Origin: a virus
Taxonomy: Duplodnaviria; Heunggongvirae; Uroviricota; Caudoviricetes
Length of the DNA stretch: 12,417 nucleotides
Direction: 5' to 3' (one strand)
Virus record (IMG/VR): IMGVR_UViG_2617270966_000008
The notes beneath the pieces were generated by a model. That model had not been told where the DNA came from. It saw only the letters and a program-made list of their open reading frames with translations, and searched no databases. A program made the translations under genes and the position numbers. Shown here one piece after another: positions 2,138 through 9,397 of this stretch (position 1 is its first letter; every line of letters starts with the position of its first letter).

Positions 2138-2167
2138 AAAATAAAAACAAAAACCCGCCGAAGCGGG
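2138..2167 (-). terminator. Rho-independent terminator downstream of hok (minus strand)
   Basis: Minus-strand RNA AACCCGC-UUCG-GCGGGUU followed by UUUUUGUUUUUAUUUU, about 70 nt after the hok stop. Confidence 0.65.
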
Positions 2168-2237
2168 TTAAGTGCGGGTGCGTTGAGGATGCCTGCCACA
2201 TCAGAGGTGGCGAGGGGTTTCTCCCTCGCCGGGTCTC

Positions 2238-2393
2238 TTACTCCTCAGGTTCGTAAGCTGTGAAGACAGCGACCTCCGTCTGGCCGGTTCGGATTCGTAC
2301 CTCGCAGAGGTCTTTCCTCGTTACCAGTGCCGTCACTATGACGGTTAAACAGATGACGATCAGGGCGATTAACATCGCCTTTTGCTGCTTCAT
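2238..2393 (-). CDS. hokD: Hok-family type I toxin (HokD/RelF-like), 51 aa
   Basis: MKQQKAMLIALIVICLTVIVTALVTRKDLCEVRIRTGQTEVAVFTAYEPEE: single TM segment then the LTRK-LCE-R-G-EV-A-YE Hok signature. ATG at 2391-2393 with AAGGAG RBS. The track's 70-aa ORF is an in-frame upstream extension from an ATG at 2448-2450. Confidence 0.85.
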   Translation of the reverse strand: MKQQKAMLIALIVICLTVIVTALVTRKDLCEVRIRTGQTEVAVFTAYEPEE

Positions 2394-2604
2394 AGCCTGC
2401 TTCTCCTTGCCTTCCGGCACGTAAGAGGCTAACCTACATGTGTCTAGCATGAAATTGGCCTCAGATTAATGTTAAGCGTCTTGCAGGACGCGTAATGTTA
2501 ACTGGGGCTTTTCTCTATCTGCCTTTGGTGTTCATGCCCGAGGCAGATAGCCTCAAGCACCCGCAGGCATTCTACTTAACTCCCGTTACCTCGCCAATAT
2601 GCAA

Positions 2605-2694
2605 TCAGTCAGAAAGGCGATCCATAAGAACAATGGCAAGAAAATAAATCGCCATTACAGCCGCAATAGCCAGCGCACATTTGAGAACCAGCAC
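2605..2694 (-). CDS. candidate small hydrophobic peptide, 29 aa (MLVLKCALAIAAVMAIYFLAIVLMDRLSD)
   Basis: Below the ORF-track size cut-off. GTG at 2692-2694 sits 5 nt after a perfect AGGAGG (2700-2705). Predicted single TM helix with a charged C-terminus. In-frame stop upstream at 2749-2751, no ATG alternative. Confidence 0.3.
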   Translation of the reverse strand: MLVLKCALAIAAVMAIYFLAIVLMDRLSD

Positions 2695-3052
2695 CACAAC
2701 CTCCTGTATTGGACGTACACCAGTCCTGATAAATATGAGGCTGTCTCGTCAGTGATTCAATGCAACTATTAGATATAGTTTCTCTGATTTTGTTCTGTGG
2801 AAATGAAAAACAGCAACCAGTCACCACCAGCACTTCTTTAAATATGCAAAGTCCGATAACAAGCTAACCTTCTAGTCCGCTTTTATTTAGCGAGAAGCGG
2901 ACATTTACTATTCATACCTGTTTAGCTCCACTCTCTTTTGAGTGTTCCGATTGTCCGTACATCATTGAGTGCTCATCCGGTGTGTTTGAGAGGTGCATTC
3001 CAGATCCGAATAGCACCTCGCTTACCATAAAAAACTCTTAATACTCTTTTTC

Positions 3053-5449
3053 CTAAGATAACCTTGGTGGTTCGCCAATGCTTTTTAACAAGGAATTGTA
3101 TTGATGCGGATCTGACGCATAAATCTTGTCTAACACGTAGTTGGCTACCTTGGAAATTTCTGGAATCTCCACAGGTTTGAATCCGCGATCAGGAATTGAT
3201 TCGAGATGTGAAAACTCGTTGTTAAGTCTATTCACAAGAGCTATCGCTGTTGAATCCTCTTCGCCAAAGAATTTCTTGATCCGTTCAAAGGCATCGTTCT
3301 TGTCATCATGGTGCGGGAACTTAAAGAACAGAAATGCCTCAAGGAACTTGCGGAGGTTGTTACCGAATCCATAGTATGGTTCATGAGATTCATTCGCTCC
3401 AACTTGATTACGGCACTTGTAAATCTGATGAAACAGGTAGTTGAATTCAGTGATGTAGTCTCGCAAATATGAAGGCATCAGGGAAATCTGACTTGTCCCT
3501 CCATTTCTCTCAACGATTAAATGTTGGCATCCACCATGATTCCTTTCATTAGGAAGTGATATTTTCTTCAGATATTTCAAGAAATCTAGGTTGTGGGTGG
3601 ATATAAAAAGCTGCTTATAGCGATAGCTGTTTGTTCCATCTAAATTCTTAATGGGTTTCGCAATCAGGCTTTCAATCAAGCTGAACATGAAGAAAATGTG
3701 ATTTCCGTCAAGACTGGAAATCGGGTCATCTATATAAATGATCAGATCCTTACCTTTGCTTTCAGGCTCTTCCAACTTGGCCATGAAGTAGCAGAAAGCA
3801 ATCAGGCTGCATTCTCCTTCGCTCAAGTTGTAGGCTGATTTGCCATCTCTGGTGACTTCAAACTTAACCGAAGTATTCTCAACATTGTCTTTTGCTTCAA
3901 GTTCGATGCCGTCATGACCAAAAAAGTGGCTGAGCAACTCATTGACTCGCTCCGCGCCCTTGCGTTCATCCTTCTGCTGCCCCTGTAAACGGGTCACTTC
4001 GGTTTCTTGTTCAAAAATTTCAGCTTCAGTTTCGGTAAAGGCAGTGTTGGCTGTGTTAGCATCTGACTTAAGACTGGCAATACGGGCGAATTCATTATCG
4101 TAGGTGATGTCTGCGATAAAAGACGCCACATCGGTAAGCCGGAGAGATTCTCGTGCAGTGCTTTTATCGTTCTCCAGCGAAATTGTGCGGTCATTATTTT
4201 TGACGATCAGAGCATTGATGTCGCCCACACATTGCTGAATTGCTGTCGGATTATGAATATAGACAGGCATGAGAACCTGCTGAAAAATAGCGTTCTTTCT
4301 CTTATCCAACGCCGCCTGCAGAGCTTTGAGGTCCTGCATGTAGTCTTTCAGATGTTCAGAAAGTTCTATCTTGCTGTTTTCAAATAATATTTTCTCTTCT
4401 GCGTAGAATTTATCGCCAGTCAAAGTCAAGAAGTTAGGAATGGCTTGGATTTCGGTGGTGATAGAAGTCAGACATGAATCGATACTTGACTCCAGAGCCG
4501 AGGATTCCTTACTGAAGTGAGAGCCTAATACCTGCCAGATATCATGAGGAAGATTCTGACGACAGAATGCGCAAGTGTCCCGCTTATCTTTGTGCAGCGG
4601 TATACCTTCCTTCACCCACATCTGGAGAGCCGTCTCATTCAACAACTCCTGAATTGGCAGGGTAGGCTCAATCAATCTTAAAAGGAGTTCTTCAGCTTCT
4701 TTGCTTATTGATTCGATGTTGAGGTTTATCGATACGGTATCGTTAATATCAGGCAAGGCCTCTTGCTTCAAGAGATTGACCTTGGCTGCTTGTTCTTCGG
4801 TTGTCAGAGCCCTGAAGCCAGGTTTTTTGACTAAACCAATGTCTTTTTTGATGCTTTCTATGTTGTAGACAGCAGGGCCGTAGATGCGATTCTGTTTAAT
4901 CTTATTGTTAGCATGAGAACGAAGTTTGCCCTCTAGAGCATCAGACGCAGTTTTATGATTGTCTTTGGTTCGATCTCGCTCTTTCTTTTTAGCTTCAAGC
5001 TCATGTCGGAGACCCGCCTTCGATTCAACACTGCCTAACCTAGTTTGAATTGCGGTAATGGCATCTTCGATTTCTTTATTCTTTTCACCAACGATAGCAA
5101 ACGTCTTGATCTCGCCGTCGGTCTGATTGACCAAGAAGTTTAGGTTATCGCTCACAAAATCCCGGTTGTAGACGCGAACATCGTAGCCATGACCAGCAAG
5201 ACCTACCTGTGTCACATCACCTTTGTCACCACGAATAGTAAAATTTGGGTCCACGTAGTTATGTGGAATGCGCCCCGTTTCCAAAGCGCGGAAAATTCGT
5301 GAGAGTGTAGTTTTACCAGAGTAGTTCCGTCCGTAGAGGATGTTAAGCCTCTTGAAATTCTGGACATTGTTACCTGCATCCTTAAGGCTATTTTTCCAAC
5401 TGAGGTCCGTAAAACTACCGAAACTACCGATGTCAACCTGACTAAACAT
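3053..5449 (-). CDS. Rad50/SMC-like ABC ATPase with internal coiled coil, CxxC zinc hook and C-terminal effector domain; RloC/PrrC-like (AAA_13-type) putative anticodon nuclease / anti-phage protein
   Basis: Residue numbers follow the 800-aa track ORF. Walker A GRNYSGKTT (42-50); long K/E/L-rich region with C295-x2-C298; C-terminal ABC signature-like LSEGE, Walker B LIIYIDDP, D-loop SSLD, H-loop ISTHN; then a roughly 170-aa domain with RKFLE...FPHH and RNHGGCQH motifs. Probable start is the ATG at 5447-5449 (GGAAG RBS), two codons inside the track's GTG. Gene looks AT-richer than its neighbours by eye. Confidence 0.8.
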   Translation of the reverse strand: MFSQVDIGSFGSFTDLSWKNSLKDAGNNVQNFKRLNILYGRNYSGKTTLSRIFRALETGRIPHNYVDPNFTIRGDKGDVTQVGLAGHGYDVRVYNRDFVSDNLNFLVNQTDGEIKTFAIVGEKNKEIEDAITAIQTRLGSVESKAGLRHELEAKKKERDRTKDNHKTASDALEGKLRSHANNKIKQNRIYGPAVYNIESIKKDIGLVKKPGFRALTTEEQAAKVNLLKQEALPDINDTVSINLNIESISKEAEELLLRLIEPTLPIQELLNETALQMWVKEGIPLHKDKRDTCAFCRQNLPHDIWQVLGSHFSKESSALESSIDSCLTSITTEIQAIPNFLTLTGDKFYAEEKILFENSKIELSEHLKDYMQDLKALQAALDKRKNAIFQQVLMPVYIHNPTAIQQCVGDINALIVKNNDRTISLENDKSTARESLRLTDVASFIADITYDNEFARIASLKSDANTANTAFTETEAEIFEQETEVTRLQGQQKDERKGAERVNELLSHFFGHDGIELEAKDNVENTSVKFEVTRDGKSAYNLSEGECSLIAFCYFMAKLEEPESKGKDLIIYIDDPISSLDGNHIFFMFSLIESLIAKPIKNLDGTNSYRYKQLFISTHNLDFLKYLKKISLPNERNHGGCQHLIVERNGGTSQISLMPSYLRDYITEFNYLFHQIYKCRNQVGANESHEPYYGFGNNLRKFLEAFLFFKFPHHDDKNDAFERIKKFFGEEDSTAIALVNRLNNEFSHLESIPDRGFKPVEIPEISKVANYVLDKIYASDPHQYNSLLKSIGEPPRLS

Positions 5450-5468
5450 GAACACTTCCGTCGCGCTG

Positions 5469-5496
5469 GCTATAGATTGTCAATTTGCAATTGAAA
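5469..5496 (-). promoter_or_regulatory. candidate promoter for the RloC-like gene (minus strand: TTTCAA, 16-nt spacer, TATAGC)
   Basis: Hexamers read in the 89-nt gap upstream of the ATPase gene. Pattern match only. Confidence 0.3.
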
Positions 5497-5544
5497 CAGA
5501 TTGTTAACCCAGTCTACTCTGAGTTTAAGGAATGTTTAAATAGG

Positions 5545-9344: not shown

Positions 9345-9397
9345 TTTCTGGTGACGTTTGGCGGTATCAGTTTTACTCCGTGACTGCTCTGCCGCCG
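9345..9397 (+). ncRNA. dicF: DicF small regulatory RNA (ftsZ-targeting, Hfq-dependent) with its terminator hairpin
   Basis: TTTCTGGTGACGTTTGGCGGTATCAGTTTTACTCCGTGACTGCTCTGCCGCC followed by GTTTTT matches DicF as recalled. GGCGG/CCGCC stem plus U-run. Ends are approximate. Confidence 0.85.

Follow-up and report, generated by a model that had tools for sequence, protein, structure and literature searches.

KdpF and PmrR (29 aa each), as well as MgrB and AcrZ, are small membrane-protein modulators expressed in healthy cells. A small hydrophobic single helix with a polar tail is also the design of the type I toxins, e.g., Hok/Gef (PF01848), TisB, ZorO, ShoB, DinQ, Ibs, and Ldr. A short open reading frame (sORF) comparable with both groups is present in a 12,417-nt stretch of tailed-phage DNA (IMG/VR record IMGVR_UViG_2617270966_000008, hereafter the window), which represents a Qin-like E. 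coli prophage of the lambdoid type. With the modulators, it shares a similar length, the single-transmembrane (TM) design, and sequence-specific conservation inside the helix; there is, however, no sequence relationship to them, and the sORF, unlike these proteins, does not share an operon with a membrane complex and is carried on mobile elements. Likewise, it resembles the type I toxins in the helix, the tail, and the setting, being prophage-encoded beside hok/sok. Unlike Hok/Gef, the peptide has no match to the Pfam Hok family (PF01848) even at E ≤ 10, and the DNA block harboring it lacks nucleotide similarity to the hok locus. In addition, no antisense RNA or translation-controlling leader typical of type I toxins was found, and a homolog of the sORF is freely translated during growth.

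This homolog, XECs145 of O157:H7 Sakai, is one of the 465 translated intergenic ORFs reported by Huecker et al. 2017 (PMC5597208), where it was called with a longer upstream start and predicted to reside in the inner membrane with one TM helix. In LB, it displayed 79.1 RPKM of RNA and 346.1 RPKM of footprints, i.e., an RCV of 4.35 (the mean of comparable genes is about 2) at a coverage of 0.99; in the BHI control, the respective values were 121.3 and 150.1 RPKM, 1.14, and 0.84 (PMC5597208). The homolog is transcribed in uninduced Sakai (PMC5597208). It is deposited in RefSeq as the hypothetical protein WP_001278460.1 (34 aa, MSDDISLVMEGALAVIAVVGVYCLVVFLMERLGN; >1000 contigs). The 34-aa form is referred to below as clade C, the 29-aa prophage form present in the window as clade A, and the third clade is the 29-aa form found on pINV, the Shigella/EIEC virulence plasmid. 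The peptide of the window and that of clade C have in common the pattern L..AL.....V...YCL...LM(D/E)RL, the single TM helix, a strong Shine–Dalgarno sequence (SD), and the position upstream of hokD on the same strand. The clade C form differs by five extra N-terminal residues (MSDDI), an ATG start, and E in place of K5 of the window; it is preceded by a hydrophobic sORF of 25–27 aa instead of a promoter-like region, and it is annotated in RefSeq, whereas the clade of the window lacks annotation.

Architecture of the sORF–hokD region

The sORF occupies positions 2605..2694 on the minus strand and runs from a GTG start (2694–2692) through 29 sense codons to a TGA stop (2607–2605). Translated from the window, it gives the 29-aa peptide MLVLKCALAIAAVMAIYFLAIVLMDRLSD, in which residues 2–24 are apolar except for K5 and the C-terminal tail is DRLSD; the hydrophobic peptide with a charged tail described in the first-pass annotation is thus evident. 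The SD, AGGAGG, is located at 2705..2700 (minus strand), 5 nt (TTGTG) 5′ of the GTG. All the elements pointed out previously, i.e., the 29-codon ORF, AGGAGG, the 5-nt gap, and the GTG at 2692–2694 upstream of the hok leader, are therefore present, on the minus strand. The version of the frame in the program-made ORF list starts one codon earlier, at an in-frame GTG (2697..2695), and has 30 aa; this alternative start follows the SD by just 2 nt and is not conserved, the relatives having GTC or TAT there. In the window, AGGAGG is not over-represented (3 copies vs. 4.09 expected). Taken by themselves, the signals of the sORF do not exceed chance; the case for a gene is built on comparative evidence and not on the SD.

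A putative sigma-70 promoter of the sORF (2732..2760, minus strand) consists of the −35 hexamer TTGAAT (2760–2755) and the −10 hexamer CATATT (2737–2732) separated by a 17-nt spacer. It scores 8/12 in a scan with a threshold of 9/12, and its hexamers are kept despite the differing spacer sequence in locus L008 (TTGAAG-17-CATATT) and in pINV (TTGAGT-17-CATATT). Transcription from this predicted promoter would start near 2727–2725. The −35 hexamer is adjoined by an inverted repeat, AACTAT-N5-ATAGTT (2764..2780, minus strand), conserved in most clade A haplotypes and degraded in pINV; speculatively, it can be seen as a candidate operator. The conserved block also includes an imperfect short direct repeat, with GTGCTGGTGGTGACTGGTT at 2810–2835 and GTGGTGCTGGTT at the start of the sORF (2685–2700), both on the minus strand, which may represent either a duplication remnant or a pairing site.

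Downstream, the stop codon of the sORF is separated by 7 nt from the −35 hexamer of the hokD promoter and by 42 nt from the hok mRNA leader, situated 3′ of the sORF. The promoter, TTGGCG-17-TAGAAT, was located by a promoter scan at 2569..2597, the leader with the sok region at 2388..2562 (Rfam RF01794, 117 bits, E=1e-26), and the hokD coding sequence, annotated in RefSeq as “type I toxin-antitoxin system toxin HokD”, at 2238..2393, all on the minus strand. The terminator of its own expected of a moron (an autonomously expressed lysogen gene) is missing, as none lies between the stop of the sORF and the hok promoter; the sole terminator-like hairpin, followed by a T-run, resides within the ORF (2670–2651, minus strand). 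The T-run is confined to the rare F18 variant carried by the window (TTTATTTTC), most copies having TTTATTGTC; this hairpin is probably a product of chance. The last third of the sORF (about 2635–2605) is at the same time the DNA upstream of the hokD promoter; due to this overlap, part of the conservation of the sORF has another cause.

The opposite, sharp left edge of the conserved sORF–hokD block is marked by a hairpin (GTCCGCTT...AAGCGGAC, 2875..2902, strand not assigned) with no conserved T-run after it. The sequence beyond this hairpin comprises variable cargo genes and is unrelated between the loci. In the window, the cargo slot extends over about 2903–5544, from the DUF977 gene to the hairpin, and it is filled differently in each of the relatives (L002–L008, L034, L035, L157). 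Its cargo includes, e.g., GmrSD_N+HEPN, SIR2+NTP pyrophosphatase, HNH+AAA ATPase, GIY-YIG, acetyltransferase+HTH, DUF4209, QueH, and an MFS transporter; the slot looks like a defense/moron hotspot with a fixed right edge at the hairpin opening the sORF–hokD block. In the window, it contains an 800-aa ORF (3053–5455, minus strand) that matches Pfam AAA_13 (E=3e-152) and the PADLOC candidate defense family PDC-S06 (1067 bits) over its full length and displays weaker similarity to PrrC, AriA, and AbiLi; this prophage cargo is probably an anti-phage system made up of a single gene. Apart from this ATPase, the DUF977 gene, and hokD, the window holds rem, a DUF968 gene, and the DicF sRNA (9346–9397, plus strand; Rfam RF00039, 72.5 bits). 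The location of the latter on the strand opposite to hokD fits a Qin-like prophage with an intact dicB-type leftward operon.

Two longer frames of the region were considered and rejected. The 74-aa Cys/Gly-rich ORF (2833..2609), earlier reported to overlap the sORF in another frame and deemed implausible, does overlap it; its boundaries are not conserved, the open stretch varying from 36 to 113 codons in the relatives, so it is not a conserved unit, and it has no convincing family match. An antisense 57-aa ORF is interrupted in 22 of the 87 haplotypes and is likewise devoid of a convincing family match.

Distribution and conservation of the three clades

The block of 346 nt preceding the hok leader was detected, in whole or in part, in 3059 of the 5426 complete E. 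coli genomes; in 1651, 80% or more of it is present. Among the matches listed (40 records), none has a coding sequence on the sORF strand under the block, one DUF977 gene abutting the match; in these records, the sORF is thus unannotated, in line with the first-pass annotation. In the phage database, four phages carry it (Tritos, Evi, mEp460_ev081, and HannyBb), none of which annotates it on the correct strand. Exact peptide sequences have been deposited as “hypothetical protein” (OSK39484.1, GCZ25347.1), and the other deposited homologs (UniRef A0A0M1UIT1 and WP_001278460.1) are hypothetical proteins, too. The numbering of locus tags skips at the sORF/hok-leader interval in L001 (6009–6666) and L002 (2809–3507), i.e., in NZ_CP033250.1 and NZ_CP039404.1: RS11825 is absent in one record, RS15030 and RS15035 in the other. 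Features once called there may have later been removed from RefSeq.

As close relatives, 134 copies were examined, taken from genomes of E. coli, from phages, and from contigs of IMG/VR. The frame is open from the GTG at 2694 in all of them (16 peptide variants and 22 nucleotide haplotypes), with a two-codon extension in a single copy. The SD in clade A and pINV is AGGAGG, AGGAGA, or AGGGGG. The history of the block is mosaic. The full block together with hok is found in 65 of the 87 distinct haplotypes, and hok follows just downstream of the sORF in 79 of the 87. Loci L006 and L007 have the block with the sORF kept and hok missing; in some loci, e.g., L008, only the ORF and its SD are retained below unrelated sequence, and in E. 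coli B (L009) the sORF directly follows the DUF977 gene and has no regulatory region of its own. On the other hand, the 5′ part of the sORF is replaced by other cargo in E2348/69, CE10, and O103:H2 12009. Such truncated loci keep only about 2635..2565, which is the DNA to about −72 of the hok start. The remnant in L036 has gained indels, and decay of the sORF is seen only where its 5′ part is deleted. Since there are loci with the sORF and no hok as well as loci with hok and no sORF, the two represent separable modules.

Within clade A, no codon signal was detected: site counting gave a dN/dS of 0.58 (10 synonymous and 16 non-synonymous differences), and outside the anchor, the numbers were 8 and 14 (P=0.22 in a permutation keeping the transition/transversion mix). 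Other frames score equally well, the chance probability of staying stop-free is 0.85, and the nucleotide diversity of the ORF (0.052) is close to that of the hok leader (0.056). The clade A copies are too similar to one another to be informative on coding, hence diverged homologs are needed.

One such homolog is the 29-aa ORF of pINV (UniRef A0A0M1UIT1; Prokka CP037924_00134), found by tblastn with 79% identity of the peptide. It is represented by 134 records with one identical peptide from S. flexneri, S. boydii, S. sonnei, S. dysenteriae, and EIEC. At the DNA level, it is 80% identical to the window within the ORF and 77% identical over 287 nt with the flanks. Like the window, it combines 29 aa, the same SD, the promoter hexamers, and a downstream remnant of the hok promoter; unlike the window, it has an ATG start, has lost hok, and is situated on a virulence plasmid and not in a prophage, ~200–290 nt upstream of the icsP TSS. 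The ATG is found exactly at the position of the GTG 2694 of the window, with the SD kept (AGGAGGTTGTC). The comparison with the prophage majority sequence revealed 9.0 synonymous and 7.0 non-synonymous differences (dN/dS 0.195); the 16 nucleotide differences lead to six amino-acid changes vs. a mean of 9.9 upon random placement (P=0.014).

In M90T, the copy on pWR100 spans 90997..90908 and precedes the coding sequence of icsP by about 290 nt. It is part of a prophage relic (L163, 3501–3690; about 90997–90810 in pWR100 NZ_CP037924.1) lying 100–290 nt upstream of the icsP TSS, i.e., within the icsP upstream regulatory DNA. In the relic, the sORF is intact and is followed by the hok promoter TTGGCG-17-TAGAAT and by ~50 nt of the hok leader, after which hok is lost. 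The Prokka annotation in PMC7132871 calls the pINV ORF. In the dRNA-seq of M90T (TSB, OD600 0.3), the TSSs listed were only 90709 and 90726, both assigned to icsP, and none was reported at 908xx–911xx, where the sORF resides, under these conditions (PMC7132871).

Clade C is more distant. It occurs in further lambdoid prophages, among them the ones of O157:H7, with the leader of hokD 75–77 nt downstream of it in 76 of the 81 loci. The tblastn matches to this clade had E=0.03–0.08 at 50–54% identity; relative to the window, the identity is 52–55% for amino acids and 61% for nucleotides, the flanks are unrelated, and the stop falls on the same aligned codon. The dN/dS obtained with clade C is 0.25, a value biased downwards by the way the clade was discovered, i.e., via protein similarity; its location at the same position upstream of hokD provides independent support for the homology. 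The SD of clade C, GGGAGGG or AGGAGGG, is 4 nt before the ATG. In this clade (L165, about 2370–2447; L246 and others), a second unannotated hydrophobic sORF occurs directly upstream of the 34-aa homolog. One of its variants, MSRPDAFAGVAIAIAFLVYVICRWG, overlaps the stop of the preceding coding sequence (ATGA); another, MIWPEAFAITGVAIAIDFLVYVICRWG, is preceded by the SD GCAGGAGG.

The cross-clade alignment shows full invariance for A1, L2, L8, A9, V13, Y17, L19, L23, and M24 and near invariance for C18, R26, and L27; the conserved parts of the peptide include the mid-helix Tyr-Cys and the C-terminal LM(D/E)R(L/F) motif. Overall, the three clades have retained the frame together with its start position, SD, and stop, and, judging from the sequence comparison, the peptide is under purifying selection between them. 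The XECs145/WP_001278460.1 family, of which three clades were found, appears to be restricted to Escherichia and Shigella; a pattern scan of genome contigs gave chiefly chance matches, the only real ones being from Escherichia ruysiae and Shigella flexneri.

Competing readings of the locus

Searches for a described family gave little. The peptide has no family match in Pfam, NCBIfam, PHROGs, or PADLOC, and a PDB profile search returned only chance TM matches. A phmmer search against 1.84 billion cluster representatives yielded only seven entries, all near-identical, and full-text literature searches gave no mention of the peptide strings or of such an sORF upstream of hokD. The earlier statement that no known family was recognizable is correct insofar as there is no curated family; it does not extend to deposited sequences, since homologs exist as hypothetical proteins and XECs145 is among the 465 published sORFs (PMC5597208). 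Derivation from a decayed hok paralog was rejected: a blastn comparison of the block with the hokD locus gave only chance 7–9-mers, and the sok model of Rfam found no second match. A structured RNA was also rejected, as single-sequence folds of either strand (z −0.6 to −1.05) were no better than shuffles, and the RNAalifold covariation term was +0.8 with many broken pairs.

The first-pass annotation offered two readings, a small membrane peptide or a type I toxin, and they fared differently. The latter would be an inner-membrane-damaging peptide silenced by an antisense or trans-acting sRNA, making up a second toxin–antitoxin module beside hok/sok; in our estimate, this is unlikely. The size, the single TM helix, and the charged tail fit the class, the prophage location adjoins a bona fide type I toxin, hokD, and about 190 nt conserved upstream would leave room for a regulatory RNA; the short direct repeat (GTGCTGGTGGTG... 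vs. GTGGTGCTGGTT) connects this upstream region with the ORF start. However, scanning 2150–3100 gave no promoter-like site for the opposite strand, with the reservation that a consensus scan can miss weak promoters, and Rfam gave no match in 2565–2960; significant or conserved structures are absent, and nothing hides the SD (fold z-scores −0.79 and −0.60, and the alignment fold). The minimal unit occurs in E. coli B and L008 without the upstream block; in E. coli B, this minimal conserved unit has no room for an antitoxin besides the ORF itself, whereas pINV retains only ~100 nt proximal to the ORF. Moreover, the ORF directly follows the DUF977 gene in E. coli B and another operon sORF in clade C. 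Finally, the RCV of XECs145 in growing Sakai, 4.35 vs. a mean of about 2, argues against strong toxicity. In comparison with a small membrane protein, a pore-forming type I toxin kept silent is thus the less likely option. The small-membrane-protein reading gained ground from the retention of the frame, start, SD, and stop in three clades at a dN/dS of 0.2–0.25 and from the ribosome profiling and the predicted single TM helix of XECs145.

The low between-clade dN/dS, together with a start codon that changes from GTG to ATG without moving and a stop aligned at one and the same codon throughout the three clades, also makes it highly unlikely that the sORF is not a gene at all, i.e., a chance open frame in DNA conserved as the upstream region of the hokD promoter plus a recently spread block. 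Such a view would accommodate the lack of a codon signal in clade A with other frames as good, the flank-like diversity, the chance-level SD count, the lack of a reported TSS in M90T, and the missing RefSeq call. It is at odds with the clade C peptide, conserved at 61% nucleotide identity amid unrelated flanking DNA and covered by footprints over 99% of its length in the homolog, and with the ORF staying intact on pINV, where hok is lost. Equally hard to uphold, and scarcely probable, is a regulatory uORF, in which transcription and translation up to the −35 hexamer of hok would tune the hok promoter or the read-through of the early operon while the peptide itself has no role. The 7-nt distance and the missing terminator suit it, as does the tight linkage to hokD (79 of the 87 clade A haplotypes and 76 of the 81 clade C loci); nevertheless, purifying selection acts on the amino acids, L006, L007, and pINV keep the ORF in the absence of hok, many loci possess a working hokD without the sORF (e.g., CE10 and O103 12009), and the spacing to hok differs, about 40 nt in clade A vs. 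75–77 nt in clade C. Yet another possibility, quite unlikely in our view, is that the sORF is a partner of Hok, forming with the 25–27-aa sORF of clade C a multi-peptide membrane module for abortive infection or superinfection exclusion; its peptide could then be a type I-like toxin or a modulator of Hok or an immunity factor.

Proposed function and significance

The sORF is probably a genuine gene overlooked in RefSeq, which encodes a one-helix inner-membrane peptide of an Escherichia/Shigella family, most likely made in the lysogen and contacting a partner. A membrane protein of the lysogen is favored because selection acts at the level of residues and the homolog is well translated in healthy cultures; translation of the window's own copy and its insertion into the membrane are inferred. 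Translation would begin with the GTG 2694, with the AGGAGG 5 nt before it as the ribosome-binding site, yielding a predicted 29-residue peptide that spans the inner membrane by a single TM helix. In lambdoid prophages, the gene has a fixed place as a codirectional member of the early-right operon, immediately before the hokD promoter and at the right-hand edge of a variable slot for defense-type cargo. Its expression is probably ensured by its own weak sigma-70 promoter (TTGAAT-17-CATATT) along with early-operon read-through. By analogy with KdpF, MgrB, and AcrZ, the peptide may act in the lysogen via a helix–helix contact with a membrane partner.

What is new here is the unannotated clade A; its sister clade was already known from RefSeq and the published list of sORFs (PMC5597208). 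Since this sister clade is in RefSeq, annotation pipelines could name the sORF. About 30% of the complete E. coli genomes hold most of the block, over half hold part of it, and the sORF is present on essentially all Shigella/EIEC virulence plasmids. The finding adds one conserved prophage-borne single-helix membrane protein, a kind that in itself is not surprising. It is the position that deserves attention: the sORF lies between an anti-phage defense slot and hok/sok and, in the case of pINV, within the regulatory DNA that precedes icsP. If the sORF did form a module with Hok, this module would be situated at the fixed edge of a prophage hotspot of defense genes.
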